Part shown: piece by piece, positions 34,001 through 62,478 of the stretch
Numbering within the stretch: position 1 is the stretch's first letter
Layout: every line of letters begins with the position of its first letter
The notes under the pieces: generated by a model
What the model was told of the DNA's origin: nothing
What the model saw: only the letters and a program-made list of their open reading frames with translations
Database searches by the model: none
Source: Patescibacteria group bacterium
GTDB taxonomy: Bacteria > Patescibacteriota > CPR2 > UBA1875 > CAIMLA01
Reading direction: 5' to 3'
Assembly (NCBI GenBank): GCA_041738615.1
Contig: JBGSPL010000001.1
Coordinates: forward strand, 10,706 to 74,705
DNA: 64,000 nt
Position numbers and translations under genes: made by a program

Positions 34001-34036
34001 GGGTCCGCTATACCCCTAGCGGACCCTCTTCATTTT
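34001..34036 (+). terminator. hairpin terminator after the PurH-domain gene
   Basis: GGGTCCGCTA-TACCCC-TAGCGGACCC (10-bp stem) followed by TCTTCATTTT. Confidence 0.6.
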
Positions 34037-46420: not shown

Positions 46421-48511
46421 ATGCCTAGAGAATATTCACTCGAAAACACAAGAAACATCGGAATTGCCGCTCATATCGATGCTGGTAAAACCACTGTAAC
46501 CGAGCGTATCCTATACTATACTGGTCGTACTCATAAGATCGGTGAAGTGCACGAGGGTGCAGCTACTATGGACTGGATGGAGCAGGAGCAGGAGCGTGGT
46601 ATTACTATCACATCCGCAGCGACTACTTGTTTTTGGGCTGGTCATCGTATCAACATTATTGACACACCAGGTCACGTAGACTTTACCGTAGAGGTAGAGC
46701 GTTCTTTGCGCGTATTAGACGGTGCGGTCGTAGTATTTGACGGTAAAAATGGTGTAGAGCCTCAGTCCGAGACTGTATGGCGCCAGGCCGATAAATATCA
46801 TGTTCCACGTATCGCTTTTGTAAACAAACTTGACGCTATCGGCGGCGATTTCTATATGTCGCTGGAATCTATCAAGGAACGTCTCGGTGCCAATGCAGTT
46901 GCTATGCAGCTGCCTATCGGTATGGAGTCTGGCTTCTCTGGTGTTGTAGACCTCATGGAGATGCGTTCGATCAACTACGGTAACGAGGATATGGGCAAAG
47001 AGCAGCATATCGCCGAGATTCCTGCTGACATGCTCGACAAGGCCAATGAATATCGCGCTATTATGGTAGAGAAAATTGCCGAAACCGACGACGCTCTTCT
47101 CGAGAAGTTCTTCGACGGCAAGGAAATCACTGTACCAGAACTCAAGGCTGCGCTTCGCAAGGCTACTATCGCCAACGAAATCGTGGGTGTTTTTGCCGGT
47201 ACTGCGCTTAAAAACAAGGGTGTTCAGCCAATGCTTGACGCCGTTATCGATTATTTGCCAAACCCGCTCGAGGTTCCTGCCGCTCATGGTGAGGACCCAA
47301 AGACTGGCGAGGAAGTAGCAGTAGAGAGTACCGATGATGGTCCTTTCTGTGGTCTTGTTTTCAAGATTGCTGCCGACCCATTCGTCGGTAAGCTTGCTTT
47401 CTTGCGTGTTTATCGTGGTCGCCTTGCTTCTGGAAGTTACGTTCTAAACGTAGCCACTGGGGAGAAAGAGCGTATCGGACGTATCGTTCGCATGCACGCC
47501 AACACCCGCGAAGAAGTGAGTGAAGTTTTCTCAGGCGAGATCGCTGCTGCAGTAGGTCTCAAGAATACTCTTACCGGTAACACTATTTGTGATCCTACCC
47601 ACCCAGTATTGCTCGAGAATATTACTTTCCCAGAGCCTGTGATTCAGGTTGCCATCGAGCCAAAGACCAAGGCCGACCAAGAGAAGATGGGCATCGCCCT
47701 CTCTCGTCTCGCCGAGGAAGATCCTACTTTCCGCGTCCATACCGATGAAGAAACAGGCCAGACTATCATAGCTGGTATGGGTGAGCTTCACCTCGACATT
47801 CTTGTCGACCGTATGAAACGCGAGTTCAAGGTAGAAGCAAACGTAGGTAAACCTCAGGTTGCTTACCGTGAGTCTATCAAGGGCAAGGTTAAACAGGAAG
47901 GTAAGTTCGTACGTCAATCTGGTGGACGTGGTCAATATGGTCATGTTTGGATCGAGATTGAGCCTAACGAAGAAGGTCTAGGATTCGAGTTCATCAATAA
48001 GATTGTTGGTGGCGCGATTCCAAAGGAATACATCAATCCAGTACAGAACGGTATCCGTGAAGCACTAGACAACGGTGTTATTGCTGGTTATCCAGTAGTA
48101 GACGTCAAGGTTACTCTCTATGACGGTTCATTCCACGAGGTAGACTCGAACGAAATGGCCTTCAAGATTGCTGGTTCCATGGCGCTTCAGGAGGGTGTCC
48201 GCAAGGCGACTCCTATTATTCTAGAACCAATTATGAAGGTAGAAGTTACCGTACCGGAAGAGTATATGGGTGATATTATGGGAGACCTCAACTCGAAGCG
48301 TGGACGCATTCAGCAGATGTCGGACCGCGGCAATGCCAAGATCGTAGACGCTTTCGTCCCACTAGCTGAGATGTTTGGCTACGCTACAAACTTGCGTTCT
48401 ATGACTCAGGGTCGTGGCACTAGTACAATGGAATTTGACCACTACGAAGAAGTTCCAGGAAACGTGGCTGCTGAGATTATCGCGAAGCGTGGTAAGAAAC
48501 AGGCAGAATAA
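46421..48511 (+). CDS. fusA: elongation factor G
   Basis: G-domain motifs [18 protein letters not shown], and domains II-V. Confidence 0.97.
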
Positions 48512-48518
48512 CCCCCAT

Positions 48519-48555
48519 CACGTCATTCCGGACCTGATCCGGAATCTATACAAAA
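48519..48555. repeat. hairpin repeat R2 (cGTCATTCCgg-ACCTGAT-ccGGAATCtatacaaaa)
   Basis: ATTCCGG/CCGGAAT stem starting 8 nt after the fusA stop. Same flanks as R1. Confidence 0.6.
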
Positions 48556-48580
48556 AGACCTCAGAAATGAGGTCTTTTTG
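48556..48580 (+). terminator. rho-independent terminator after fusA
   Basis: AGACCTCA-GAAA-TGAGGTCT followed by TTTT. Confidence 0.8.
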
Positions 48581-48590
48581 ATATCTAGTA

Positions 48591-48625
48591 TATTTGTCGT
48601 TCCTGGTCGTAAGCCAGGGATCCTC
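48591..48625. repeat. hairpin repeat R3 (tatttGTCgTTCCtgg-TCGTAAG-ccagGGAtCC)
   Basis: About 30 of 34 positions match R4 at 52078..52108. Confidence 0.55.
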
Positions 48626-48659
48626 CCCTTGGCTTGCCTTGCTAAAGCAAGGCATTCAC

Positions 48660-48689
48660 GATACTTTTGTCCATAGTCACAAAAGTATC
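48660..48689. repeat. perfect 11-bp-stem hairpin GATACTTTTGT-(8 nt)-ACAAAAGTATC
   Basis: Perfect inverted repeat. Sister element at 52214..52241. Confidence 0.6.
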
Positions 48690-48878
48690 CAAAAAGACAT
48701 TATAAATGCGGCGGTCTGAGGACCTTCGCAGCGGACAGTCATGCCTGAGCGGCTTGGGTTTAGTCAAATTGCGATCTCTCACAAATCTATAGGATTGGCC
48801 GTTGTAGTACACGCATTTTATTAATCTCACGTCCTAGGCCCTCCAGACACGTTACAGGGCAAGTTAACGTCAAAATCA

Positions 48879-48907
48879 TTGATTATTGCTCTATTTTGGC
48901 ATATAAT
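48879..48907 (+). promoter_or_regulatory. near-consensus promoter (TTGATT-17-TATAAT) at the head of GC-rich cassette 2
   Basis: TTGATT at 48879-48884 and TATAAT at 48902-48907. Confidence 0.6.
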
Positions 48908-48960
48908 CGCGGTCAGTAGTTTACAGAGCATGGGTTGACTTGCCCAGAGAGGGGAATCGT

Positions 48961-49131
48961 ATGCCGCAAGAAACTGCTGCTCCGGCTTGGATCGGATGGG
49001 TGCTCCTTCTAATCCCCACCGCCATGATCTTCATTGGACCCATGGCGTACAAGAGGCGCGATGACGTAAGAGCTTCGTGGCAAAGGCCGTCAGAGGATGA
49101 GATTAACCGATCGATTGGGTATCGCGGTTAG
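48961..49131 (+). CDS. small hydrophobic protein (56 aa, one TM helix), cassette 2
   Basis: GAGAGGGG SD 7 nt before the ATG at 48961. Sequence WIGWVLLLIPTAMIFIGPMAY followed by a basic tail. Confidence 0.4.
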   Translation: MPQETAAPAWIGWVLLLIPTAMIFIGPMAYKRRDDVRASWQRPSEDEINRSIGYRG

Positions 49132-49196
49132 CCCCGTCTGATAGGTAGTCAAAGGCGAGCGCGCCCCCCGGTGCGCACCTGACGAGAAGAGGGGAC

Positions 49197-49328
49197 ATGA
49201 AGAGGATACTGAGTGATTTGTGGTGGACCTTGGTGGTCTACCTGGTCTGCTCCATTGTCTGGGCCGTTTGTGGCCTGGCTTCGGTCGGGATCGTTCCTGA
49301 CCAGATTGGCGCCGACGAAGGCGCCTAG
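49197..49328 (+). CDS. small hydrophobic peptide (43 aa, one TM helix), cassette 2; not in the ORF track
   Basis: ATG at 49197 after AAGAGGGG. MKRILSDLWWTLVVYLVCSIVWAVCGLASVGIVPDQIGADEGA. Confidence 0.35.
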   Translation: MKRILSDLWWTLVVYLVCSIVWAVCGLASVGIVPDQIGADEGA

Positions 49329-49347
49329 CGCCAGAATGGAGTAGACC

Positions 49348-49593
49348 GTGAGTAAGGTCATAGTCTCCCTGCCGGGAGGTAAGGCGATATTCACAGAGGA
49401 GCTTCCTCGGGAAGCAACGACGGTTTCCGTCGAGTATGCCCAGAGGCTCGTGGATCAGCTCGGGAAGACCGACGGGAGGAACTACCAGCTGTGCACTAAG
49501 CCTCAAGTCGCGAGCGACGAGGACGAGGAGCGCAATCTGCTTCCTGGAGATGTTCTCATCAGCATCGCCGATTTTGGTCCTCGTACAAACTGA
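49348..49593 (+). CDS. hypothetical protein (81 aa, GTG start), cassette 2
   Basis: GGAG SD 6 nt before the GTG. No family recognised. Confidence 0.4.
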   Translation: MSKVIVSLPGGKAIFTEELPREATTVSVEYAQRLVDQLGKTDGRNYQLCTKPQVASDEDEERNLLPGDVLISIADFGPRTN

Positions 49594-49658
49594 GGCCGTC
49601 CACGGCACATCCAAACGCATGTTGGGATGTCGCCGGTGGCGGCCTCTCAACATATATA

Positions 49659-49687
49659 TTGTCAAGAATGCTTATCCATAGTAAGAT
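49659..49687 (+). promoter_or_regulatory. candidate internal promoter (TTGTCA-17-TAAGAT)
   Basis: AT-rich 60-nt spacer inside the GC-rich cassette. Moderate match to consensus. Confidence 0.35.
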
Positions 49688-49753
49688 ATCGCCATCGACG
49701 TTAGTGTCACTTGTGTGCGCCTAGCGGCGTGCACCTACCAAGGGGGGGCGGGG

Positions 49754-50233
49754 ATGATGAAACGCTGGTTACTCGACGGCTTGCAAGTGCTTGTGTTGTC
49801 AGCCGTACTGACAGCGGCTTGTTACGCGCCGGTTTTTGCCGGCATCTGGCTCTACGGGGTCATCGGGGGCTTGAACCTGTTCGTACTGTTCCTGGCTGTG
49901 GCTGTTGTGGCCATTCGCATCGCACTCTCACCACATGGTTTCGTTGAGCGTTCAGCGGACCTGTGGCTTGCAGCTGTGGGCATGTCGCTCGCGGCGCTTG
50001 AGATGTGGAAGCCGCTTCTCACTACAGTCGTCTGCTGCGAGTACTTCATGTTCATGGCAGTGCTCGGCTACGGTGCTCCAGTCTGGTTGCTCGGACTTCC
50101 GGTCGCGATTTGGCCGGTACTGCCACTGCTGGTTTTGGCCAGCACGTTGCTTCTCGGGATGTTCATCATGCTGGAGGCAGAGGGCGACGAATTCTCCGAC
50201 ACCAGCGAGCTGGCGCGGTCGTTCGGCCACTAG
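49754..50233 (+). CDS. hypothetical polytopic membrane protein (about 159 aa, 4-5 TM helices), cassette 2
   Basis: AGGGGGGG SD before the ATGATG at 49754. Strongly hydrophobic with an acidic C-terminus. Confidence 0.5.
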   Translation: MMKRWLLDGLQVLVLSAVLTAACYAPVFAGIWLYGVIGGLNLFVLFLAVAVVAIRIALSPHGFVERSADLWLAAVGMSLAALEMWKPLLTTVVCCEYFMFMAVLGYGAPVWLLGLPVAIWPVLPLLVLASTLLLGMFIMLEAEGDEFSDTSELARSFGH

Positions 50234-50304
50234 GGACACCAGTGTCTCAGGTTCCGGAGGTCCTGCAACGTAGGTTGTGGGGCCTCCGGAAGAGAGAAAA
50301 ATAC

Positions 50305-50333
50305 TTGCACAAAGTAGTGATATATAGTAATAT
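50305..50333 (+). promoter_or_regulatory. promoter for tuf (TTGCAC-17-TAATAT)
   Basis: TTGCAC at 50305-50310 and TAATAT at 50328-50333, with a 110-nt AT-rich leader. Confidence 0.45.
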
Positions 50334-50444
50334 TTGTAAGCCAAATGAATACATATCCACCACGTCACGAAGGACGGGGGGATTTAAAGTGTATTACAAG
50401 AATATTAAACAAAATTAACAAAGTAAAACTTACAAGGAGACCAA

Positions 50445-51620
50445 ATGGCTGAAGTTTATAAGAGAGACAAGCCCCATGTAAACGTTGGTACTATCGGACA
50501 CGTTGACCATGGTAAGACAACCCTGACCGCTGCAATTACATCGGTACTTGCAAAGAAAGGCCTAGCTACCGCTAGAAAGTTTGCCGACATCGACAACGCT
50601 CCAGAAGAGCGAGAACGTGGTATTACTATTGCTACTTCTCACCAAGAGTACGAGACAGAGAAGCGTCATTATGCGCACGTTGACTGTCCTGGACATGCCG
50701 ACTACGTAAAGAACATGATCACTGGTGCTGCACAGATGGACGGCGCTATCTTGGTTGTGGCAGCTACTGACGGTCCTATGCCTCAGACTCGTGAGCACAT
50801 CCTACTTGCTTACCAAGTTGGTGTTCCACAGATTGTAGTTTACATGAACAAATGTGACATGGTTGATGATGCAGAGATGCTTGACCTCGTCGAGATGGAA
50901 ATTCGTGAGCTTCTTACTAAGTACAAATATGATGGTGACAACACACCTATCATTCGTGGTTCAGCCCTCAAGGCGCTTGAAGGCGATGCTAAGTACGAAG
51001 AGTCAATCATGGAGCTTATGAACGCTCTTGATACATACATCCCAGAGCCTACTCGTGATACCGACAAACCTTTCATGATGGCTGTAGAGGACGTTTTCTC
51101 TATCAAGGGTCGTGGTACAGTTGCTACTGGTCGTATCGACCGTGGTGTTGTTAAGATCAACGACGAAGTAGAAATCATTGGTATTAAGCCTACTCGCAAG
51201 ACTGTTGTTACTGGTATCGAGATGTTCAAGAAACAGCTCGAGCAGGGACAAGCTGGTGACAATGCTGGTTTGCTACTACGCGGTATTGAAAAGAACGACA
51301 TTGAGCGTGGTATGGTTCTAGCAAAGTCTGGTTCTATCACACCTCATACAGAGTTTGACGCTGAAGTATACGTTCTTACCAAAGAAGAAGGCGGACGACA
51401 TACTCCTTTCTTCAAGGGTTACAAACCTCAGTTCTACATCCGTACAACTGACGTAACTGGTGAGATCGAATTCGAAGGCGAAATGGTTATGCCTGGCGAT
51501 AACGTCAAGATGGCCGTTAAGCTTATCCAGCCAATCGCTATCGAAGAGGGTCTTCGCTTCGCAATCCGCGAAGGTGGCCGTACAGTTGGCGCTGGTGTAG
51601 TTACCAAGATCAAGAAATAG
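50445..51620 (+). CDS. tuf: elongation factor Tu
   Basis: [18 protein letters not shown] motifs and domains II/III. Confidence 0.97.
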
Positions 51621-51629
51621 ATTCACACA

Positions 51630-51651
51630 GATCCCCGCGCAAGCGGGGATC
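51630..51651. repeat. GC-rich hairpin R6 (GATCCCCGC-GCAA-GCGGGGATC) after tuf
   Basis: 9-bp perfect stem followed by TTATAATAAC and no U-run. Flanks resemble R1/R2. Confidence 0.5.
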
Positions 51652-51713
51652 TTATAATAACTAAAACTTATAGATAGCAGGGCACTTTGACCCTGGGAAC
51701 TAGAAGGAGACAC

Positions 51714-52034
51714 ATGGCTGAGAAAAACGAAAAACAGAGGATCCGAATCAAACTAAAGGCGTACGACAACAAGATTATCGACCAGTCGACAACACAGATA
51801 ATCGAGACAGCAGTGCGCAGTGGTGCTAAGGTGGCGGGACCTATCCCACTACCAACAGATAGGACTCCTATCACTGTAAACCGCGCGAGCAACGTCAACA
51901 AGAACGCACGAGAACAGTTTGAGATGCGGGTGCACAAGCGCCTCATAGATATCACTGACTTCACAGCGAAGACAGTGGACAGTCTGATGAGTCTCTCACT
52001 TCCAGCCGGAGTAGACATCGAAATCAAAATGTAA
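51714..52034 (+). CDS. rpsJ: 30S ribosomal protein S10
   Basis: GAAGGAGA SD before the ATG at 51714. S10 signature [11 protein letters not shown]. The ORF-track start at 51687 lacks an SD. Confidence 0.95.
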
Positions 52035-52043
52035 TAGTAAAAA

Positions 52044-52064
52044 AGCCCCTTCGGGGGCTTTTTT
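52044..52064 (+). terminator. rho-independent terminator immediately after rpsJ
   Basis: AGCCCC-TTCG-GGGGCT followed by TTTTT. Confidence 0.8.
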
Positions 52065-52077
52065 GATTACCGGTATA

Positions 52078-52108
52078 TTGTCATTCCTGGTAGTAAGTCA
52101 GGGACCCA
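52078..52108. repeat. hairpin repeat R4 (tGTCATTCCtgg-TAGTAAG-tcagGGAcCC)
   Basis: Near-identical to R3. Confidence 0.55.
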
Positions 52109-52118
52109 GCCTTTCCAA

Positions 52119-52146
52119 CGTCATTGCGAGCGAAGCGCGGCAATCT
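52119..52146. repeat. hairpin repeat R8 (cGTCATTgCgagc-GAAGC-gcgGCAATCtccc)
   Basis: Same architecture, with ATTGC/GCAAT replacing ATTCC/GGAAT. Confidence 0.45.
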
Positions 52147-52153
52147 CCCTGTC

Positions 52154-52178
52154 CGTCATTCCATCGTAGACTGGAATC
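52154..52178. repeat. hairpin repeat R7 (cGTCATTCCatc-GTAGAC-tGGAATCc)
   Basis: ATTCCA/TGGAAT stem. Confidence 0.55.
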
Positions 52179-52213
52179 CATTACTAGCGGATTAATCTTA
52201 GCGTTATTCCTTC

Positions 52214-52241
52214 GATACCTTTCTCTTGAAAGAAAGGTATC
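52214..52241. repeat. perfect 11-bp-stem hairpin GATACCTTTCT-CTTGAA-AGAAAGGTATC
   Basis: Perfect inverted repeat with the same GATAC...GTATC ends as 48660..48689. Confidence 0.6.
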
Positions 52242-52379
52242 CCAAAGTTCAAGAAAAATCGAACTCCCTCGTCTCTGTACGAAATTTTACTGAGCAAGCT
52301 CGCAATAATTTCTAGCATTCGACGATAGCCGGGCGCGCGGCACCGAGCGATTTTTCGGGGGAGTTGGAAGCGAATATTA

Positions 52380-52408
52380 TTGACAAAACGGCAATTTAGT
52401 ATTAAATT
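52380..52408 (+). promoter_or_regulatory. promoter at the head of GC-rich cassette 3 (TTGACA-17-TAAATT)
   Basis: Perfect -35 at 52380-52385. The TAAATT -10 is identical to the rpoB promoter -10. Confidence 0.5.
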
Positions 52409-52482
52409 ATAGTGTCGTCATAGCCCCGATGGCTATTTCGACGCACGTTGACGTTAATTCACGACACCAGGAGGTGTTTGCG

Positions 52483-52935
52483 GTGCCAAACGCTGGTCCT
52501 CGCACCGAAAAGACGGCCGGCGTGAAGCGGCCGAACTGTTTTTGGGTGGCTGTCTTCGAGGTGCTTACCGGTGGGAAGAAGTACCGCGTTGATTTCGCGG
52601 TGAGTCGTTCACAGAAGGACGCCTATCTGGCGGATGGTCACGATTCCTCTGTCGATCGCAACTACTCTCATCTGATATGCGCAAAGCTCAGGGATGAGCA
52701 CGGAGTTATCGTTGAGATTCTTGCACCGAGCCAGTTTCGCTTGATTGAGTTCCATTCACGCGATGCCGGTTCGATGTCCACCGAGGAGTTGGCCCGAATC
52801 ATGCGACGGACCGAGAAGAACACCGCCGAGACTGCTGCAATCGTGGCTGCTCACAACGATAAGAAGGCGGCCAAAGAGAAGGCTAAACGCCAGAGGATAA
52901 CCCGTACTGGAGATGGGCAAGCCGAGCTCTTCTAG
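52483..52935 (+). CDS. hypothetical protein (150 aa, GTG start), cassette 3 gene A
   Basis: AGGAGG 8 nt before the GTG at 52483, in frame with the ORF-track ORF 52429..52935. Lys/Ala-rich C-terminus. No family recognised. Confidence 0.45.
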   Translation: MPNAGPRTEKTAGVKRPNCFWVAVFEVLTGGKKYRVDFAVSRSQKDAYLADGHDSSVDRNYSHLICAKLRDEHGVIVEILAPSQFRLIEFHSRDAGSMSTEELARIMRRTEKNTAETAAIVAAHNDKKAAKEKAKRQRITRTGDGQAELF

Positions 52936-53010
52936 CCTTTGGCTCGCGCTCACAAGGATTTGCGTTTAGGGATGTGCCCAAACGTGAAACAGCACAGAGA
53001 GGGGAGTCGC

Positions 53011-53334
53011 GTGAACGAGCTGGAGCAGTTCTACGCGCATTTGCGGTTCTTCATCCGTGAAGGGCCGAAGTACGTCGTTCCTGGCAAGGAGAGTTGCCCC
53101 GAGGTTACCCTCGACACTCTCGTAAGGCAGGGCATGGAGCTCGAGCCTGAGCTTTGGGGCAATGAGACACAGACTCGCGAGATCATCTTTGGACTTCGCG
53201 GCATGGACCTCGCAGCCTGGGAGGTTTTTGCTCGCAAGAATCCCGAGGGTTTCAAGCGGCTCAAGTCGGCCTACGACTACGAGGAGGCGTTCCATATCGC
53301 GATGTCTCGCGAAGAGGCCGCCAAGAAACGCTAG
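53011..53334 (+). CDS. hypothetical protein (107 aa, GTG start), cassette 3 gene B
   Basis: GAGGGGAG SD 4 nt before the GTG at 53011, in frame with ORF 52939..53334. No family recognised. Confidence 0.4.
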   Translation: MNELEQFYAHLRFFIREGPKYVVPGKESCPEVTLDTLVRQGMELEPELWGNETQTREIIFGLRGMDLAAWEVFARKNPEGFKRLKSAYDYEEAFHIAMSREEAAKKR

Positions 53335-53344
53335 TGACGTCAAC

Positions 53345-53393
53345 GTCGACGACCGTGGGCGGTGGGGGAAACCCCGCTGCCCACGTCGACCAA
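53345..53393. repeat. 49-bp GC-rich hairpin-forming direct repeat, copy 1
   Basis: GTCGACGACCGTGGGCGGTGGGGGAAACCCCGCTGCCCACGTCGACCAA. GTCGACG/CGTCGAC outer stem, imperfect inner stem around a GAAA loop. Confidence 0.8.
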
Positions 53394-53460
53394 TTTAATA
53401 CTCTATATGGTACGAACAGTGCCACCAACGACGTCAAACCCCAGGAAGGGGTGTGGCTTT

Positions 53461-53883
53461 ATGACTGCAGGAATCGAGGAACTCATCCGAATCATCAACG
53501 ATTCGCGTGAGGGCAAGCATTTCGAGCTGACGTCACTGACTGTGATGTTGCTTACCGAAGGTAAACCGGACGGGGTCTTCTCTAGCTCGGTTCCCTTCCG
53601 CTACATCATCGAGTGCCTTCTCGACGGGTTTGAAGGCGCTTGGGTCAACGTACTCAGCGAGCGTCACCTCGACGAGGGGTACCAGGAGCTGTTGGCCCTG
53701 ACACCGTTTGGTGGTAAGCAGCTGCTCTTTGCCACTCACACTTCAGTGGGCCTTTCTTTGGAAGGGTTCGAGTTCCTGATGTGGGACGACGAGGGACACC
53801 TGCGGACACCCGAACGGGTAAAGGCTCAGTTCGGCAACGATGCCCTGGGTTGGCTTGAAGCCTGGGTTTACGAAGCTTCCTAG
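53461..53883 (+). CDS. hypothetical protein (140 aa), cassette 3 gene C, bracketed by the 49-bp repeats
   Basis: AGGAAGGGG SD about 10 nt before the ATG at 53461. Acidic. No family recognised. Confidence 0.45.
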   Translation: MTAGIEELIRIINDSREGKHFELTSLTVMLLTEGKPDGVFSSSVPFRYIIECLLDGFEGAWVNVLSERHLDEGYQELLALTPFGGKQLLFATHTSVGLSLEGFEFLMWDDEGHLRTPERVKAQFGNDALGWLEAWVYEAS

Positions 53884-53889
53884 CTTGAC

Positions 53890-53938
53890 GTCGACGACCG
53901 TGGGCGGTGGGGGAAACCCCGCTGCCCACGTCGACCAA
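53890..53938. repeat. 49-bp GC-rich hairpin-forming direct repeat, copy 2
   Basis: 49 of 49 identical to copy 1. Ends 5 nt before the rplC promoter -35. Confidence 0.8.
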
Positions 53939-53943
53939 AATAG

Positions 53944-53972
53944 TTGACATTTGTGAGTATTTTATATACAAT
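53944..53972 (+). promoter_or_regulatory. promoter for the rplC-led S10/spc block (TTGACA-17-TACAAT)
   Basis: TTGACA at 53944-53949 and TACAAT at 53967-53972, followed by a ~120-nt leader. Confidence 0.55.
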
Positions 53973-54090
53973 TGTTCTTGCGTAAAAAGATATATTCGCA
54001 AAAAACCATCGGGGGATGGGCAAGTCTACACAAGGTTGTAGAAACTGTCTGTCTGTCGAATAGTATTATATTGATTAAAAAGGATGAACA

Positions 54091-54714
54091 ATGAAGGCAT
54101 TGATCGGTAAGAAAATCGGAATGACTCACATCTTTGACGAGAAGGGTACTGTTGTACCCGTGACCGTTGTAGAGGCGGGTCCATGTACTGTTGTTCAGGT
54201 GAAAACACCAGAAGTTGACGGCTATAGCGCTGTTCAGCTCGGTTTTGGCTTGGACAAACGTATCAACAAGCCACTGGCCGGGCACGTCAAGAGCTCTGGC
54301 GCAGTGCCAAAAGTGCTTCGCGAGTTTGACCTCGTAGAGGTAGCTCCCGAGGGGGAAGAAGCGGTAACCATCAAGGTTGGCGACGTTATTGGCGTCGATA
54401 CCTTCGAAGTTGGCCAGCTTCTAGCTGCTACAGGGACTTCTAAAGGCAAAGGTTTCGCAGGTACTGTAAAGCGTCACAACTTTACGACCGGACCAAAGAC
54501 TCATGGCTCACACAACTATCGTGCGCCAGGATCAATCGGTGCTGGTTACCCACAACACGTCATGAAGGGCATGCGTATGGCAGGCCACATGGGTGCCGAG
54601 AAGGTAACTGTGAAGAACCTAGAAATTATTAGTATCGATAAAGAAAACAATACACTTGCGATTAAGGGAGCTATTCCTGGTCCACGCAAGGGGATTGTGG
54701 TGCTGAGAGGTTAA
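54091..54714 (+). CDS. rplC: 50S ribosomal protein L3
   Basis: L3 signature and operon position. Confidence 0.95.
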   Translation: MKALIGKKIGMTHIFDEKGTVVPVTVVEAGPCTVVQVKTPEVDGYSAVQLGFGLDKRINKPLAGHVKSSGAVPKVLREFDLVEVAPEGEEAVTIKVGDVIGVDTFEVGQLLAATGTSKGKGFAGTVKRHNFTTGPKTHGSHNYRAPGSIGAGYPQHVMKGMRMAGHMGAEKVTVKNLEIISIDKENNTLAIKGAIPGPRKGIVVLRG

Positions 54715-55331
54715 TGATGAAGATTGCAGTATACGATACAAAAGGCACAAAACAGGCAGACAAGGACGTAAAAGTCACTTTATTTGATGCTCCAGTAAAT
54801 CCAGCTCTTATTCACGAAGTTGTTACCGCACAGCTTGCAGCACGTCGTGCCGCTAGCGCCAAGGTAAAGACTCGCGCCGAAGTTTCCGGTGGTGGTAAGA
54901 AGCCTTATGCCCAGAAGGGTACAGGCCGCGCTCGTACTGGTTCTATCCGCAACCCGCTATGGCGTGGTGGTGGTACAACCTTCGGACCTACAGGGATTCA
55001 GAATTTCACTCTCAAGGTTCTCAAGAAGAAGCGCTCTGGCGCCGTACTTTCCTCACTTGCAACACGCAAGGACAATTCTGTAGTCCTAGATAAGTTTGAG
55101 TTTACAAAGACCAAGGATTTCGCCCTAGCAATCGAGAAAATCGCTACTGGCAAGAAGCTCGTCGTCATGACTGGCCTTACCGAGCAGGCAATCTTGGTGT
55201 CACGTAATCTTTCAAACGTTCGCGTATGTGATTACCGTAACCTAAATGTTTATGACATTCTCTGGTCCGACACAATTGTTTTTGTGGCTGATGCACTAGA
55301 GAAGACAAACGAAGTATTGGGGGCCAAATAA
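54714..55331 (+). CDS. rplD: 50S ribosomal protein L4
   Basis: L4 signature and operon position. Confidence 0.95.
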   Translation: MMKIAVYDTKGTKQADKDVKVTLFDAPVNPALIHEVVTAQLAARRAASAKVKTRAEVSGGGKKPYAQKGTGRARTGSIRNPLWRGGGTTFGPTGIQNFTLKVLKKKRSGAVLSSLATRKDNSVVLDKFEFTKTKDFALAIEKIATGKKLVVMTGLTEQAILVSRNLSNVRVCDYRNLNVYDILWSDTIVFVADALEKTNEVLGAK

Positions 55332-55615
55332 TGAAACAGTTAAGCGTCCTAAAGCGACCAGTAATCTCAGAAAAAAGCTTTGCCTCGGCAGACCTCGGCA
55401 AGTACGTATTTGTAGTTGATATTGACGCTACAAAGACCGAAATCGCTCAAGCCGTTGAGAAGGCTTTCTCGGTTCATGTTATTGCCGTAAATACCGTTAT
55501 TATCGCTGGTAAGATCAAGAAGTTTGGTAAGTCTTTCGGTAAGAGAAGTGATTTTAAAAAAGCTATCGTCACCATCAAAAAGGGTGAAACGATAGAGGAC
55601 TTTAAGGGAATTTAG
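55331..55615 (+). CDS. rplW: 50S ribosomal protein L23
   Basis: L23 signature and operon position. Confidence 0.9.
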   Translation: MKQLSVLKRPVISEKSFASADLGKYVFVVDIDATKTEIAQAVEKAFSVHVIAVNTVIIAGKIKKFGKSFGKRSDFKKAIVTIKKGETIEDFKGI

Positions 55616-55617
55616 AG

Positions 55618-56457
55618 ATGGGTATCAGATTAGTAAAACCAACTAGCAACGCAAGACGCGGCATGTCCGTCGACGATTTTGCCGATATTACAAAAAAGAG
55701 CCCCGAGAAGTCACTGACATTCGGCCTCAAAAGCCAAGCTGGCCGTAACTCTCAGGGCAAGATTACCGTTCGTCACCGTGGTGGTGGTGTAAAGCGCCTT
55801 TATCGCTTTATCGACCTAAAGATGCTGGGCAACACTACTGTTACTGTAGAGTCTATCGAGTACGATCCAAATCGTTCCGCTCGTATTGCTCTTGTGACCC
55901 GCGAAGATGGCAAGAAAGCCTACATCGTTGCACCTATCGGAGTGACTGTGGGTGCCAAGCTTGCATTCGGTGAAGACGCAGAAATCCGCACAGGAAACCG
56001 CAAGGTACTTCGCGACATCCCAGTCGGTACCATCGTTTATGCAGTAGAGATGCAGCCTGGCAAAGGCGCACAGCTCGCTCGCTCCGCAGGTACCAAAGCT
56101 CAAATTATGGCGAAAGAAGCAGGAATGGTTCAGATCAAGTTGCCTTCTGGCGAAATCCGTCTTGTTTCTGAGAATTGTGGTGCTTCTATCGGTACTGTAT
56201 CAAATTCAGATCATAGTAACATCAAGGTTGGTAAGGCTGGACGTACTCGTCACATGGGTTTCCGTCCTTCCGTCCGTGGTAAGGCTATGAACCCTGTAGA
56301 CCACCCACATGGTGGTGGTGAGGGTGGTACTTCGATCGCGCTTATGGGCGGACCAAAGACACCTTGGGGTGCTAAGGCTCTGGGTCTAAAGACTAGAAAT
56401 AAGAAGAAATTATCAAGTAAGTATATTGTTAAAGGCCGCAAAAAGGGCCGAAGGTAA
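55618..56457 (+). CDS. rplB: 50S ribosomal protein L2
   Basis: Conserved L2 sequence (GRNSQGKITVRHRGGG, HPHGGGEG). Confidence 0.97.
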   Translation: MGIRLVKPTSNARRGMSVDDFADITKKSPEKSLTFGLKSQAGRNSQGKITVRHRGGGVKRLYRFIDLKMLGNTTVTVESIEYDPNRSARIALVTREDGKKAYIVAPIGVTVGAKLAFGEDAEIRTGNRKVLRDIPVGTIVYAVEMQPGKGAQLARSAGTKAQIMAKEAGMVQIKLPSGEIRLVSENCGASIGTVSNSDHSNIKVGKAGRTRHMGFRPSVRGKAMNPVDHPHGGGEGGTSIALMGGPKTPWGAKALGLKTRNKKKLSSKYIVKGRKKGRR

Positions 56458-56466
56458 GGGGTAAAG

Positions 56467-56739
56467 ATGTCTAGATCACTGAAAAAAGGTCCATATATAG
56501 ACGAACGCCTCGTGCGTAAGGTTGATGCTCTCGGGAACGACAAAAAGGTTATCAAGACCTGGTCTCGTGCCGCTGTCATCATTCCTGAGTTTGTAGGCCA
56601 CACTTTTGCGGTTCACAACGGCAAAGAGCACACACCGGTTTTCGTTTCTGAAAACATGGTAGGTCATCGTCTCGGTGAATTTTCACCAACACGTAAGTTC
56701 CGTGGTCACGGTGGTAAGCTCGCGAAGGGGAAGAAGTAA
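56467..56739 (+). CDS. rpsS: 30S ribosomal protein S19
   Basis: S19 signature. Confidence 0.95.
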
Positions 56740-57155
56740 TGGAAGTACGCGCAGTAGAGAAATATATTCGTATCTCCCCAAAGAAAGCTCGTTTGGTTGC
56801 TGATATTGTTCGTGGGCAGAATGCAGTTTCTGCGATGACCACACTGAAGTTCACACCAAAGAAAGCCGCTGGGATTATCAGCAAAGCTATCAATTCTGCA
56901 GTTGCAAACGCAGTCAACAACTTTGGTCTAGTTCGTGAAGAGCTAGTAATCACCAAGCTTACAGTTGACCAAGGCCCAAGCCTAAAGCGTTTCCGACCAC
57001 GTTCAAAGGGTATGGCTTCACCGCTTCTAAAGCGCACTAGCCACATCATCGTCGTGGTTTCTGGAGCTGAGGCAAAAGAAGTGAAAAAGGCAGCCAAGGC
57101 TGAAGCTAAAGAAGTGAAGAAAGCTGTCAAAGCTACTCCAGAGGAGGTCAAGTAA
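56739..57155 (+). CDS. rplV: 50S ribosomal protein L22 with a Lys/Ala/Glu-rich C-terminal tail
   Basis: L22 core plus an AKEVKKAAKAEAKEVKKAVKA tail. Confidence 0.9.
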   Translation: MEVRAVEKYIRISPKKARLVADIVRGQNAVSAMTTLKFTPKKAAGIISKAINSAVANAVNNFGLVREELVITKLTVDQGPSLKRFRPRSKGMASPLLKRTSHIIVVVSGAEAKEVKKAAKAEAKEVKKAVKATPEEVK

Positions 57156-57820
57156 TGGGACATAAAGTAAATCCAATCAGTTTCCGTCTACAAGTTAGTA
57201 AGAATTGGTCTTCTCGTTGGTTTTCCAAACGTGACTATGCAAAACTTCTACTCGAAGACATCATGATTCGTCGTTTTATCCTCAAAGAGCTTGGAATGCG
57301 TGCCGGTATTGCAAATGTTGAGATTGAGCGTAATGCCAATCAGGTTAGCATTAGCATTCACACTGCAAAGCCAGGGGTTGTTATCGGTCGTGGTGGCGCA
57401 GGGGCTACAGAGCTTAAAGCAAAGCTTGCCAAGCTTACAACTGGCAAAATCAAAGACATCAATGTTTTTGAAGTCAAGAACCCAGATACCAACGCTCAGA
57501 TTATTGCAGACAATATTGCACAGCAGCTAGAGCGTCGTATCGCCTTCAAGCGCGCAATGCGTCAGGCAGTAGAGAAGGCACAACGTGCCGGAGTAAAGGG
57601 TGTCAAGATCATGGTTGGCGGACGTTTGAACGGTGCTGAGATTGCTCGCTCTGAGTTTGTTATCAAGGGTAAGATCCCACTAGCTACTATTGACGCTGAT
57701 ATCAAATACGCTACCAGTCGCGCCAAGACCACTTACGGTATCATCGGTGTCAAAGTTTGGGTTTTCACTGGAATGATCGAAAAGAAGAAGAAATCGGAGG
57801 CTACTGATGTTACAGCCTAA
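57155..57820 (+). CDS. rpsC: 30S ribosomal protein S3
   Basis: KH and S3-C domains. Confidence 0.95.
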
Positions 57821-58238
57821 GAAAACCAAGTATCGCAAGATGCAGAAAAATCCTCAAACCGGAAAAGCCGGGAGAGGGACCAACATCGACTTTGGTAAGT
57901 ACGCAATCAAGGCTCTAGAGCCAGCCTGGATTACCTCACGTCAGATAGAAGCCGCTCGTCGCGCAATGACTCGTTATATCAAACGTGGTGGCAAGATCTG
58001 GATCCGAATTTTCCCAGACAAGCCTATCACCAAGAAACCAAACGAAGTCCGCATGGGAAGTGGTAAGGGTAATATCGACCACTATGCAGCCGTCGTGAAG
58101 CCAGGAAGAATCCTCTTCGAGATGGATGGTGTATCACCAGAAATCGCTCGCGAAGCACTACGCCTCGCAAAACATAAGTTACCAATCAAAACCAAGATTA
58201 TTGTGAAAGATTCTGGGGGAGATAGCGATGAAAGCTAA
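57807..58238 (+). CDS. rplP: 50S ribosomal protein L16
   Basis: L16 signature. Confidence 0.95.
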
Positions 58239-58476
58239 AGAACTAGTAGAAAAGGACGTAAAAAGCCTACAAAAATTGCTAGCCGATACTGAGGCTAAGC
58301 TCCTAAAGGATCGTTTCGCTATCGCTGGTCGGGAGCTCACAAACGTGAGCGAGGTTGCAAAAAGCCGAAAGCTTATCGCTCAGATCAAAACCGTTCTACG
58401 TGAGCGCGAGATCTTTGAAGTAGAGAAAGCTAATCAGCCTTCGCATGAAGCTACGGCTGACAAGGGGGAGAAGTAA
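58228..58476 (+). CDS. rpmC: 50S ribosomal protein L29
   Basis: Size and position. Helical, Lys-rich. Confidence 0.85.
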
Positions 58477-58477
58477 G

Positions 58478-58729
58478 ATGAAAAGAACACTAACAGGTAA
58501 AGTTGTTTCAGACAAGATGGAGAAGACTATTGTTGTTCTCGTTGATCGCGTCAAAGAACACCCGCTTTACAAGAAAAAATATAGCGTTTCTACTAAGTTC
58601 GCTGCTCATGACGAGGCTGGTAAGGCCAAAACAGGGGACATGGTCGTGATTGAAGAATCCCGTCCATTATCCGCGACCAAACGTTGGTCACTTGTGAAAG
58701 TCCTGACGGAGAAGGATTTGGAGAAATAA
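58478..58729 (+). CDS. rpsQ: 30S ribosomal protein S17
   Basis: AGGGGGAG SD before the ATG at 58478. S17 core [15 protein letters not shown]. The ORF-track start at 58445 would overlap rpmC by 32 nt. Confidence 0.9.
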
Positions 58730-58730
58730 G

Positions 58731-59099
58731 ATGATTCAGCATATGACAAGATTAAAGGTTGCTGACAACACTGGCGCGAAAGAAGTTCTTTGCATCAAGG
58801 TTCTCGGTGGCTCCAAGAGACGTTACGCAAGACTTGGGGACATTATCACATGTTCCGTCAAGTCCGCACTTCCTGGTGGAAACGCCAAGAAAAAGGAAGT
58901 TTGCAAGGCGGTAGTAGTTCGGATCAGTAAAGATTTTATCCGCAAAGACGGAAGTACCATCAAGTTTGATGACAATGCAGTAGTCCTGATTGATAAGAAT
59001 AACCAGCCTAGAGGTACTCGTATCTTCGGCCCAGTTGCTCGCGAGCTTCGCGAGAAGGGCTACATGAAGATCGTTTCTCTAGCGCCAGAAGTATTGTAG
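58731..59099 (+). CDS. rplN: 50S ribosomal protein L14
   Basis: [17 protein letters not shown] signature. Confidence 0.97.
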
Positions 59100-59107
59100 G
59101 AACGAAT

Positions 59108-59422
59108 ATGAAGATTCAAAAAAACGACAAAGTATACATTACTGCCGGTAAGGACAAGGGTAAGACCGGTGAAGTTAGCAAGGTCCTCGTTCGTGATAAC
59201 AAGGTAATAGTTGCTGGTATCAATCTAGTCAAGAAGGCTGTTAAGCCAAGCAAGAAAAACGCTGCTGGTGGAATCCTGGAGATTGCCAAGCCTCTCTCAC
59301 TTTCCAATGTAGCACTTGTTTGTCCGAAGTGCGGCAAGCCTGCACGCATCGGCTATAGTATCGCTAAAGACGGCAAAAAGGCACGTTTGTGCAAGAAATG
59401 CCAAGCGATTGTGAAGGAGTAA
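59108..59422 (+). CDS. rplX: 50S ribosomal protein L24
   Basis: KOW motif and operon position. Confidence 0.9.
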   Translation: MKIQKNDKVYITAGKDKGKTGEVSKVLVRDNKVIVAGINLVKKAVKPSKKNAAGGILEIAKPLSLSNVALVCPKCGKPARIGYSIAKDGKKARLCKKCQAIVKE

Positions 59423-59425
59423 CAG

Positions 59426-59965
59426 ATGGCACGAATGAAAGATTTATATAAAGACAAGGTTGCCGCTCTTCTTCAGACCGAATTCGGCTACAAGAATGTC
59501 AACATGATCCCCAAGGTCACTAAGGTAGTTATCAATGCCGGCGTTGGCCGTGCATCCGCTGACACCAAGGCCCTAGACCCAGTAATCGCTGGCCTTACCA
59601 AGATTGCAGGGCAAGCACCTGTTATCAACAAGGCACGCAAGTCTATCGCTGGATTCAAGATTCGTGAAGGTATGAATATTGGTGCCAGCGTCACCCTACG
59701 TGGAGAGCGTATGTACGAGTTCCTAGATCGCCTAGTAAACGTTACGTTGCCTCGTGTTCGCGACTTCCGCGGTATCAAAGGTAACGCTTTCGACGGACAT
59801 GGTAATTACTCACTAGGTATCAAAGAGTATGGTGTATTCCCAGAAATTAGCTTCGAAGAAGCCGTAAACACCTTTGGACTACAGGTAAATGTAGCCACTA
59901 GCGCAAAAACAGACGCTGAAGGCAAGGCCCTACTGACTAAACTTGGTTTTCCATTTAAGGATTAG
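59426..59965 (+). CDS. rplE: 50S ribosomal protein L5
   Basis: L5 signature. Confidence 0.95.
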   Translation: MARMKDLYKDKVAALLQTEFGYKNVNMIPKVTKVVINAGVGRASADTKALDPVIAGLTKIAGQAPVINKARKSIAGFKIREGMNIGASVTLRGERMYEFLDRLVNVTLPRVRDFRGIKGNAFDGHGNYSLGIKEYGVFPEISFEEAVNTFGLQVNVATSAKTDAEGKALLTKLGFPFKD

Positions 59966-59974
59966 AGGATAGAG

Positions 59975-60160
59975 ATGGCAAAGAAATCGTTAATCGCAAA
60001 AGCAAAGAAAACGCCAAAGTTTTCAAGCAGATCTTATACCCGTTGTGCACTATGTGGTCGTCCACACGGATATCTGCGCAAATTCGACATGTGTCGTATT
60101 TGTTTTAGAGAGCTAGCAAGCAAGGGAGAAATCCCTGGTGTAACCAAATCAAGCTGGTAA
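59975..60160 (+). CDS. rpsZ: 30S ribosomal protein S14 type Z (zinc-binding)
   Basis: 61 aa with a CxxC...CxxC motif. Confidence 0.95.
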
Positions 60161-60171
60161 GGAGTAACATT

Positions 60172-60549
60172 ATGGCAACAACAGATCCAATTGCAGATAT
60201 GCTGACACGTATCCGAAATGCACGAATGGTGCACAAGGAAAGCGTTGTTATTCCTGCATCAAAGCTAAAAATCGAGATCCTAAAGGTCTTAAAAACTGAA
60301 GGTTATATCGGTGAATTTTCACTTGAGAACAGCGGCGCAACTATCCTCGCGAATATCATGGGCACAGATACCAAGAAATTGGTGCGTGTTTCCAAGCCAG
60401 GTCGTCGTGTATACGTCGGCAAGGAAGAGATTCCAAGAGTACTTCAGGGTCATGGTTTGGTCATCATCTCTACCTCAAAGGGAGTTATGAGCGGCAAATC
60501 GGCCAAAAAGCTCGGTCTCGGTGGCGAATTAATCTGTAAAGTTTGGTAG
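60172..60549 (+). CDS. rpsH: 30S ribosomal protein S8
   Basis: [13 protein letters not shown] signature. Confidence 0.97.
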
Positions 60550-60558
60550 GAGAGTAAT

Positions 60559-61095
60559 ATGTCAAGAATAGGAAGATTACCAATTACGTTACCAAGCGGT
60601 GTTTCAGTCGAGATTAGTGGACAGAGCATCAAAGTTACTGGCCCTCGCGGCGAGCTTTCATATGAGTACAGCGACAAGATTGCGGTTACTCAGAATGAAA
60701 ACACACTCTTAGTTACCAGAACCGTTGAGGACCCTACAAGCGCTGAGCTTTATGGTTTAGTTCGAACACTTATCAACAACATGGTTGTTGGTGTTTCTGA
60801 GGGCTTCAAGAAGGAACTTGAGATTAATGGTATCGGTTATCGTGCCGCAGTTTCTGGTTCCAAGCTTACCCTGAACCTTGGCTACTCACATCCAATCGAG
60901 TTTATTGCTCCAGCCGGCATTACAATTGCCGTGGAGAAGAACATTGTTACTGTATCTGGCGTTGACAAGCAACTTGTCGGCCAGACTTCAGCTGAAATCA
61001 GGGCATTTCGTAAACCAGAGCCTTACAAAGGTAAGGGCGTTAAATATGTAACCGAGACTATCAGGCGCAAGGCTGGTAAGACGGGTGCGAAGTAA
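60559..61095 (+). CDS. rplF: 50S ribosomal protein L6
   Basis: L6 signature. Confidence 0.95.
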   Translation: MSRIGRLPITLPSGVSVEISGQSIKVTGPRGELSYEYSDKIAVTQNENTLLVTRTVEDPTSAELYGLVRTLINNMVVGVSEGFKKELEINGIGYRAAVSGSKLTLNLGYSHPIEFIAPAGITIAVEKNIVTVSGVDKQLVGQTSAEIRAFRKPEPYKGKGVKYVTETIRRKAGKTGAK

Positions 61096-61101
61096 GGAGC
61101 T

Positions 61102-61449
61102 ATGATGCTAGAGAGATTTATAAAGAAAGATCGTCGCAAAAATCGTATTCGTAGCAAGATATTCGGTACGGCTCTTCGCCCACGTTTATCCGTAAGCGTT
61201 AGTAACCTGCACATCATTGCTCAGGTTATAAATGATGAAGCCGGAAACACCATAGCTTATACAAGCGATTTACTGCTAGCCGCTAAGGGTACAAAAACCG
61301 AGAAAGCTGCGGCTGTTGGTGCTGCTATCGCAGAGCTAGCAAAGAAAGCCAAGATCAAGTCAGTGGTTTTTGATCGCGGTGGTAAGCTATATCACGGTAG
61401 GGTAAAGGCTCTTGCCGAAGCAGCGCGTACTAACGGGCTAGAATTTTAG
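61102..61449 (+). CDS. rplR: 50S ribosomal protein L18
   Basis: L18 signature. Confidence 0.9.
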
Positions 61450-61454
61450 GAGTT

Positions 61455-61991
61455 ATGATGAGAGATACAAACCCAAGAGACAGAAAAAATCAGGAATTTG
61501 GTGAAGCACCAGAGTTCGAAGAAAAGGTAGTTTCTATCGACCGTGTTACTCGCGTAGTAAAGGGCGGACGTAGACTACGTTTCCGCGCGACTGTAGTTGT
61601 TGGAAACAAAAAGGGCAAAGTCGGAGTTGGTGTAGACAAGGGTAACGAAGTTATGACAGCAGTCCAAAAGGCTGTAGCACGTGCAAAACGTGACATGATC
61701 GAGGTAAACCTAACAGGTACTACTATCGCTCATGAGCTTTCCGCTCGTAAGGGTGGGGCGTATGTTTTCCTAAAGCCAGCTTCTGAAGGTACCGGAGTTA
61801 TCGCCGGTGGGGCCGTTCGTGCCGTACTGGAAGCCGCTGGAGTCCGTGATATCCTATCCAAAATGATTGGCTCAAATTCCAAAATCAACAATGCATATGC
61901 CACAATTTTGGCACTTAAAGACCTAAAGGCTACACCGGTTTCTTCGAAGACAAAAGTCGAGAAGGTTGTAGTAGAAGACGAGGCCAAATAA
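61455..61991 (+). CDS. rpsE: 30S ribosomal protein S5
   Basis: S5 dsRBD and C-domain. Confidence 0.95.
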
Positions 61992-62449
61992 TGAAATTAG
62001 AATCACTTTTTGGAAATATCAAGCAAGATAATAAGCGCGTAGGTCGCGGTATTGGTTCCGGTAAGGGTAAGACCGCTGGTCGTGGTACCAAGGGTCAGCT
62101 TTCCCGAACTGGTAAAAAGATTCGTCCCGGTTTCGAGGGTGGACAGCTTCCACTTGCACAGCGCGTGCCAAAGAAGCCTGGTTTCAAGGCTCTTACAGCC
62201 AAGGCTACTACCTTGCCTCTTGATAAGTTCAATCACCTAAAGAAGGGGAGCAAAGTTACTGTTGAGACCCTGGTTGCCGAAGGCATGATTGCAAATATTC
62301 GCGCAAGGTACAAGGTTGTCCTTAGCACTAAATACACTAATGAACTTGTTTTCGATCTAGAAAAAATGAGTGAAGCCGCAAGACTTGTTGCTACACCAGT
62401 GAAGAAGACCGAAAAGGTTGCCGAAAAAGCCACTACTGATAAAAACTAA
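61991..62449 (+). CDS. rplO: 50S ribosomal protein L15, directly after S5 with no L30 gene between them
   Basis: L15 signature [19 protein letters not shown]. Confidence 0.95.
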
Positions 62450-62478
62450 ACCTCATATTTGAGGAAGGGGGATATCTG

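Follow-up and report, generated by a model that had tools for sequence, protein, structure and literature searches.

Two identical copies of a hairpin-forming repeat flank a small gene, here called gene C, in a 64,000-nucleotide (nt) stretch of DNA from a Patescibacteria group bacterium (assembly GCA_041738615.1, contig JBGSPL010000001.1, positions 10,706 to 74,705 of the forward strand). This whole stretch is referred to as the window, and positions follow its numbering unless a related locus is named. The repeats lie in the gap between the ribosomal protein genes rpsJ and rplC, where gene C is preceded by two further small genes, A and B. On balance, with a confidence only a little better than even, the 51-nt repeat is taken to be the hairpin that links small ORFan cassettes, GC-rich and fast-evolving, into a modular array, which in a clade of Candidatus Saccharibacteria occupies the gap between the rpsJ terminator and the rplC promoter. 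The same element would act both as an intercistronic or terminal RNA hairpin and as a recombination linker. The anatomy of the cassettes, an insertion-deletion difference (indel) against a related genome, the arrays of relatives and covariation within the stems are documented by comparison of sequences.

Saccharibacteria are ultrasmall epibionts with strongly reduced genomes, and their acquisition of genes is poorly understood. The locus described here is a defined hotspot between two of the most-conserved operons, in which small genes of foreign composition are strung together by a shared hairpin linker and vary between close relatives. If the linker mediates exchange, the array would be a cellular counterpart of the shuffling by PeSL modules in T4-like phages, or an integron-like system without a neighboring integrase. 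It would also represent a pool of fast-evolving accessory proteins, possibly for interactions with hosts or phages, that could be tracked by one short motif. Should the hairpin prove to be no more than a terminator, a variable island within the ribosomal protein cluster is still documented; islands of this sort can fragment assemblies and upset the synteny of marker genes.

Sequence and Fold of the Repeat

An earlier note on this DNA described identical 49-bp direct repeats at 53345-53393 and 53890-53938. Both copies are exact, and the 49-mer occurs twice in the window where shuffled sequence gives an expectation of 0. The copies were found to be identical for 2 nt further to the left, so that the true repeat measures 51 nt (53343-53393 and 53888-53938) with a spacing of 545 nt. 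The same note held that the repeat appears nowhere else in the 64 kb, and no third copy was found in the window either with up to 3 mismatches or with a covariance model of the hairpin family described below. The further statement that the copies flank gene C exactly holds at the 3′ side, where copy 2 begins 4 nt past the stop codon. It does not hold at the 5′ side, since copy 1 ends 67 nt ahead of the gene C ATG and leaves a 67-nt 5′ untranslated region (5′UTR).

The + strand RNA of either copy has a folding energy of -39.4 kcal/mol (z -6.6 and -7.4). Its outer stem measures 6 bp (GUCGAC/GUCGAC) and is separated by 4 bulged nucleotides on the 5′ side (GACC) from a 13 bp inner stem, which includes two G.U pairs and is closed by a GAAA loop. 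The minus-strand RNA is weaker (-31.3 kcal/mol, z -2.8), and DNA folding repeats this strand asymmetry (bottom -16.4 vs top -21.3 kcal/mol). The tails 3′ of the two window copies, CAAUUUAAU and CAAAAUAG, lack a U-tract, and a terminator scan called neither copy. A U-tract does follow the hairpin in some relatives, namely at loci L009 (CUUUUUUAU) and L007 (CUUUUAC). A search of Rfam over 48000-55000 returned nothing significant, its sole matches (E 0.056 and 0.17) falling far under the gathering scores.

A Hairpin Family in the rpsJ-rplC Gap of Relatives

A pattern search based on the frame of the hairpin returned three metagenome loci. Those with inspected flanks, L019 and L021, place it in the rpsJ-rplC gap; L020 has the same sequence as L019. 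In L019, five ORFans stand in a row between rpsJ and rplC. Gene 1 ends with a different terminator, followed by a promoter, and each of genes 2-5 is followed by a hairpin framed GACGTCGAC...GTCGACC (four framed hairpins). Behind each of the three internal hairpins comes a spacer that is part of a conserved 82-nt repeat (70-88% identical) ending in the palindrome TTTGACGTCGARC, after which come the ribosome-binding site (RBS) and the start codon. The hairpins after genes 3 and 5 (L019 6027-6075 and 7123-7171) are 98% identical and bracket two cassettes, an arrangement like that of the window.

Ten distinct hairpins from 7 loci could be aligned. The feet ACGTCGAC... and ...CGTCGACC are present in all 10, and the inner stems differ. 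Standard pairs occupy 93.8% of cells in the alignment compared with 84.4% in shuffles, and 0 of 500 shuffles reached the observed value. Moreover, compensatory double changes were found at six pairs, and controls in which the alignment was slid gave 34-53% paired. In the outer stem, 4 of the 7 pairs are invariant across the family. All copies lie on the gene strand and start 0-13 nt past the stop codon wherever the end of the upstream gene is known. For eight of the 10 hairpins the + strand gives the better fold, and G.U pairs make up 15 of the 178 pairs. In the covariance model, the sites reach 52-73 bits when read on the + strand, compared with 11-21 bits on the reverse strand.

With this model, no copy was found beyond the rpsJ-rplC gap in 123.6 kb (the window and related loci) and 78.4 kb (lineages with other cargo), except on a linked L009 contig, which shares the gene-1 end and terminator of the rpsJ-rplC gap. 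A pattern scan of representative genomes matched one Saccharibacteria site. Matches of the degenerate pattern in actinobacteria (Prescottella, Streptomyces) were attributed to chance.

The hairpins are similar even when they stand beside unrelated genes: the window repeat is 87.5% identical to L019 5526-5581, and the L010 hairpin is 96% identical to L019 6478-6530. Where the cassette genes of two lineages are unrelated, no DNA inside their arrays is similar apart from the hairpins. From these loci a common cassette anatomy emerges, consisting of a 5′UTR with the palindrome TTGACGTCRA, a Shine-Dalgarno sequence in a small stem, an open reading frame (ORF) of 90-170 aa, and the hairpin, whose feet are fixed and which has a 4-nt bulge on the 5′ side and an inner stem of variable sequence with G-rich and C-rich arms. 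The conserved 5′UTR measures 65-100 nt per cassette, and the motif GACGTCGA recurs about 25-30 nt ahead of each cassette start codon. Consensus promoters were found only at the array heads and before rplC; no consensus sigma-70 promoter is present at window 53394-53460, nor in the L019 linkers before genes 3-5.

Several smaller observations concern the cassette boundaries. The Shine-Dalgarno sequences of cassette genes lie in or beside a short covarying stem (CACC/GGTG, CCCC/GGGG, TCCC/GGGA) just 3′ of TTGACGTCRA, as seen at window 53438-53452 and at L019 5210-5225, 5643-5656, 6143-6157 and 6594-6607. A comparison of L019 6475-6510 with 6579-6614 revealed that the 5′ arm of the hairpin resembles the cassette 5′UTR and RBS (TTGACGTCGAnnACCGnnGGGGTG), and the 3′ arm could also pair with the downstream Shine-Dalgarno region. 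The L008 contig opens (1-60) with an inverted partial copy of the hairpin region, which is probably an assembly artefact caused by the palindrome.

An Indel Bounded by the Hairpin

A related genome, L002, belongs to an uncultured Candidatus Saccharibacteria bacterium whose RpsJ is identical to that of the window. There, rpsJ is followed by A, B, a single hairpin, the promoter known from the window, and rplC, and gene C is missing. By blastn, window 50299-53393 aligns with L002 8582-11726 and window 53888-62513 with L002 11677-20321. Both alignments reach the single L002 hairpin, which therefore matches both window copies, and exactly 545 bp (C and one copy) are absent. The one-hairpin state in L002 would represent the other allele of the same locus. 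Contigs of SRR28170474 in the Logan assemblies are identical to the window in the inspected stretches and break inside the hairpin on both sides, as expected of an assembly at a repeat.

The rpsJ-rplC Gap as a Hotspot

With RplC relatives used as anchors, the state of the gap was established in other lineages, where it was found to hold 0 to 5 different genes. No gene occupies it in L022-25 (RplC 86% identity), in which the terminator is directly followed by the promoter. In L026-29 (RplC 77%) it contains radical-SAM, DegT-type aminotransferase and NUDIX genes (1942-4290) together with a 106-aa ORFan, in L030/31 (RplC 72%) a single ORFan, and in L033 (RplC 72%) a DEAD-box helicase gene (4116-5336) and a 100-aa ORFan. 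In L026-31 and L033 the last gene ends in a strong GC-rich hairpin of other sequence, which lies just before the rplC promoter.

One sample contributed two contigs, L009 and L032, that agree through the end of gene 1 and the terminator behind it but differ from there on. In one of them the rplC promoter comes next; in the other, a promoter, a homologue of gene C, a framed hairpin and more genes follow. This difference is cassette presence/absence variation within one community. The earlier note had made its cassette idea depend on population-level presence/absence variation of the bracketed gene; L002 lacks C, and L009 and L032 differ by cassettes.

Layout of the Island and Genes A, B and C

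The gene order of the window leads from fusA (46421-48511) through a GC-rich stretch (about 48900-50250) and tuf (50445-51620) to rpsJ (51714-52034) and its terminator. This is followed by a promoter-like site, genes A and B, the first hairpin, gene C, the second hairpin, a near-consensus promoter, a conserved leader, and rplC together with the remainder of the S10/spc cluster. The features of the gap are as follows.

52039-52064, + strand: rpsJ terminator, canonical (A-tract, GC stem, T-tract); left edge of the gap, found likewise in the empty gap of L022
52380-52408, + strand: promoter-like site TTGACA-17-TAAATT before gene A, kept in L002
52429-52935, + strand: gene A, 168 aa ORFan that opens the island
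53011-53334, + strand: gene B, 107 aa ORFan with a GTG start and RBS; 64% identity to its L002 homologue
53343-53393, + strand: linker hairpin copy 1, 9 nt past the gene B stop codon; 68.4 bits with the covariance model
53394-53460, + strand: 5′ region of cassette C, with an AT-rich spacer, a GACGTC palindrome (53430-53435) and the Shine-Dalgarno sequence in a stem ACCCC/GGGGT (53438-53452)
53461-53883, + strand: gene C, 140 aa, the cassette gene between the copies; rare family without a known domain
53888-53938, + strand: linker hairpin copy 2, 4 nt past the gene C stop codon, ending 5 nt short of the rplC promoter's -35 box
53944-53972, + strand: rplC promoter-like site TTGACA-17-TACAAT (11/12 matches); right edge of the gap, kept in all relatives

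The site at 52380-52408 is likely the promoter of the whole island. The region 53394-53460 is homologous to an inter-cassette region of L009. The GC content of A, B and C is 0.55-0.58 (0.63-0.75 at third codon positions), compared with 0.47 for the window and 0.50 for rplC. The same contrast was found in every lineage, with 0.51-0.60 for cassette genes and 0.42-0.50 for rplC.

Genes A, B and C gave no significant match in Pfam, PHROGs, NCBIfam or PADLOC, and scans of the relatives' cassette proteins against Pfam, NCBIfam and PADLOC were also empty. Word-index protein searches with B and C returned the query alone. An exhaustive HMMER search with gene C found three genuine relatives of 37-55% identity; two of its six matches were rejected as tandem-repeat artefacts. 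The predicted model of the gene C protein is reasonably confident (pLDDT 80), and no significant structural neighbor was found for it. The homologue of gene C in L007/L008 is the last gene before the rplC promoter and stands behind homologues of A and B and a family hairpin. In L010 the homologue is followed by a family hairpin and then the rplC promoter, and in L009 it is second in the array, followed by a family hairpin and two further small genes.

Viral and plasmid sequences were also searched. No relatives of gene B and no match to the hairpin pattern were found in viral contigs. Eight viral matches to a loose frame pattern were dismissed as chance, being weak folds inside coding regions of high-GC phages. 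Members of the gene C family diverge too strongly for their alignment to serve in a viral scan. Phage records contained no tblastn match to gene C, and plasmids no blastn match to the island.

Proposed Role of the Linker Hairpin

It is proposed that the hairpin acts in the sense-strand transcript. Because the linkers contain no consensus promoter, C and genes 3-5 of L019 would be read through hairpins from the promoter at the array head. With C read through the hairpin, and with window copies that lack a U-tract, an efficient terminator is unlikely. Inside the array, the hairpin may instead hold back 3′ exonucleases between cistrons and attenuate transcription in part, and after the last cassette it would insulate the rplC promoter from read-through.

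In the DNA itself, crossovers could take place in the shared hairpin, which would then be a recombination linker. The identical pair in the window would then be the footprint of the gain or loss of one cassette through a crossover in the hairpin. Two identical direct repeats of 51 nt at a distance of 545 bp tend to undergo deletion through RecA-dependent recombination or replication slippage, and loss of C could follow either route. Gain would come from recombination with incoming DNA. In addition, tuf-rpsJ and rplC would act as homology arms for the swapping of whole islands after DNA uptake. On this reading, homology-driven exchange is the most likely route.

Several points weigh against this proposal. 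The feet are nearly invariant and the inner stems turn over, with stem types reassorted relative to their flanks (L010 vs L019), and the 7-9 nt of the shared feet are too short for efficient RecA recombination. These observations hint at microhomology events or at a sequence-specific protein, which could be a recombinase or a regulator. The role as stabilizer and attenuator is a proposal, and any non-consensus promoter in a linker would alter it. The indel itself reads either as gain or as loss of C. Moreover, distant lineages use hairpins without the GTCGAC frame, and the frame may reflect simple shared ancestry. The search for copies in the organism of the window covered the 64 kb of the window.

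Alternative Explanations

The earlier note had likened the arrangement to integron cassettes with attC sites, and the likeness stands in part. According to this explanation, a recombinase encoded elsewhere would recognize the conserved feet and the asymmetric bulge of the folded hairpin and move promoterless cassettes in and out; an attC-like site of this kind, belonging to a new integron-like system, is considered unlikely. As in integrons, the arrays consist of co-oriented, apparently promoterless small ORFs, each closed by an imperfect palindrome whose ends are conserved and whose center varies. They would be read from an upstream promoter, and single-cassette presence/absence differences are bounded exactly by the site, the unit of gene and palindrome being cleanly absent in L002. 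The identity of repeat copies stops at the hairpin edges in two independent cases, the inner stems are reassorted relative to the flanks, and the feet are conserved far beyond the need of a stem, as 4 of 7 outer pairs never vary. The outer boxes of attC are R″ (RYYYAAC) and R′ (GTTRRRY), with the crossover in R′. The feet found here, GTCGAC(G)/(C)GTCGACC, are unlike both, and GTCGACC departs from R′ at positions 3 and 6. At 47-51 nt the site is also shorter than the usual attC size range. When the fold was checked for attC-like bases, a 4-nt asymmetric bulge was present, but not the canonical single extrahelical bases of attC, and the top strand was favored rather than the bottom strand, which carries A.C mismatches. 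The 64-kb window contains no integrase, as the earlier note had stated, and no other recombinase was found in it: its gene map is one of housekeeping genes, and 10 unclear ORFs matched only non-recombinase Pfam families or none. No recombinase was found beside the arrays either, and neither intI nor attI adjoins them; rpsJ and rplC flank the arrays directly in the loci that show both flanks, including those of non-framed lineages. Related lineages fill the same role with unframed hairpins, and each cassette carries a conserved 5′UTR of 65-100 nt, unlike integron cassettes. A broader version, a so far undescribed integron-like gene capture in Saccharibacteria between the tuf-rpsJ and rplC operons, is similarly doubtful; in it, either a recombinase encoded elsewhere or the recombination machinery of the host would use the framed hairpins (GACGTCGAC-stem-GTCGACC) as folded sites and so shuffle promoterless ORFan cassettes within and between lineages.

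An ordinary gene-end terminator could also have been duplicated, either because C arrived with a near-identical terminator or because one copy converted the other, and the hairpin would then have no role in mobility. The hairpin is GC-rich, sense-strand specific and located 0-13 nt past the stop codon, a U-tract follows it in L009 and L007, and islands of both the rpsJ-rplC and the fusA-tuf gaps all end in a strong GC-rich hairpin just before the native promoter. A gene-end hairpin of Prescottella even fits the same degenerate pattern by chance. However, the window copies, without a U-tract, escaped the terminator scan in a genome whose native terminators are canonical, and efficient termination would leave C and genes 3-5 of L019 without a promoter. 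The family also adjoins unrelated genes across lineages and coincides with indel edges. A plain terminator is considered unlikely. Far less probable still is a dispersed palindrome of the repetitive extragenic palindrome (REP), bacterial interspersed mosaic element (BIME) or miniature inverted-repeat transposable element (MITE) type, or a target-site duplication left by a transposon that carried C. The repeat is an intergenic, imperfect palindrome and its direct copies flank a gene, which had led the earlier note to mention REP and MITE elements. REPs occur in hundreds of dispersed copies and are tied to RAYT transposases. In contrast, the 64 kb contain two copies, and across about 200 kb of related loci none lies outside the rpsJ-rplC gap or the linked L009 contig; within this sequence the repeat is not the common gene-end element that the earlier note had considered. 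Scans of public collections agree, with one Saccharibacteria match among representative genomes and only three metagenome loci. No transposase or RAYT gene and no terminal inverted repeats were found around C, C lacks a transposase domain, and 51 nt is far above known target duplications. A separate, AT-richer family of small palindromes lies nearby. This group of explanations is largely refuted.

Comparison with Known Systems

The linker-hairpin reading, with its homology-driven exchange, can be compared with several described systems. The PeSLs of T4-like phages are modules of a polyG...polyC stem-loop that flank small ORFans in hyperplastic regions between core genes, and the edges of the indels that distinguish close genomes fall in the modules (PMC2839356, PMC4122927). 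They contain a strong sigma-70 early promoter, the stem-loop insulates transcription, no dedicated recombinase is known, and mini-circles have been shown by experiment (PMC2839356, PMC4122927). No cellular example was known to their authors (PMC2839356, PMC4122927). In the Saccharibacteria array, too, a stem-loop module flanks ORFans in a variable region and indel edges fall in the module (L002, L019, L009/L032). In contrast to PeSLs, the framed linkers lack a consensus promoter, although copy 2 adjoins that of rplC, and the array, known here from sequence alone, lies not in phage genomes but in a cellular chromosome between ribosomal operons. PeSLs are the closest working counterpart of the array, with phage morons and integron arrays also among the nearest systems known.

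Phage morons are extra genes of deviant base composition that lie between two conserved genes and carry a terminator-like hairpin and their own promoter; they are thought to insert by illegitimate recombination, without conserved linkers (PMC2839356). The deviant GC, the hairpin and the promoter at the array head are shared with morons. The array differs in that its linker family is common to unrelated cassettes and most cassettes lack a consensus promoter of their own. The rAID-1 orphan-immunity arrays of Bacteroidales consist of small co-directional genes with skewed GC and repetitive intergenic sequences, have been called "reminiscent of integrons", and need a 5′ XerD-like recombinase (bioRxiv 10.1101/471110). 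Neither an XerD-like recombinase nor homologues of immunity genes were found here. For the RNA-level role, REP and BIME elements offer a model: a sense-strand intercistronic hairpin can shield upstream mRNA from 3′ exonucleases and attenuate read-through. The stable sense-strand hairpin between cistrons is shared with them, but the present family is confined to one locus. Full-text literature searches on Saccharibacteria and the topics of gene cassettes, islands and horizontal transfer returned no description of this array. Arrays of a known kind exist elsewhere; what appears to be new is a linker-punctuated ORFan cassette array in a cellular genome.

Other Features of the Window

A second GC-rich island (GC 0.58) of small ORFs occupies the fusA-tuf gap at 48900-50250. 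It encodes a membrane protein (about 49755-50233) and an 81-aa ORF (49348-49593), and strong sense-strand hairpins follow two ORFs, at 49596-49645 and at 50252-50291 (-35.6 kcal/mol, without a U-tract), the latter directly next to the tuf promoter. The cargo of this gap differs between lineages, with four ORFs in L002, three in L030 and one in L022. The covariance model found no framed hairpin in the fusA-tuf island, which therefore uses other hairpins.

The AT-richer palindromic repeats (GTCATTCC...GGAAT and GTCATTGCGAGCGAAGCGCGGCAATC) lie just after the rpsJ and fusA terminators (52080-52190 and 48590-48620, respectively) and occur again at L002 10397-10560. They are a separate REP/MITE-like family. 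Downstream of the island, the rplC leader of about 120 nt (53975-54090) is kept in 9 lineages (RplC identity 71-100%). Its stem, UCGGGGGAU... paired with ...CUGUCUGUCGA, contains 4 covarying pairs and has no Rfam match; the leader is a candidate for a ribosomal-protein autoregulatory element. Two more strong GC-rich hairpins were found in the window, one at 33976-34030 after an MGS-like gene (GC 0.54 in the kilobase 33001-34000) and one on the minus strand at 18211-18260.

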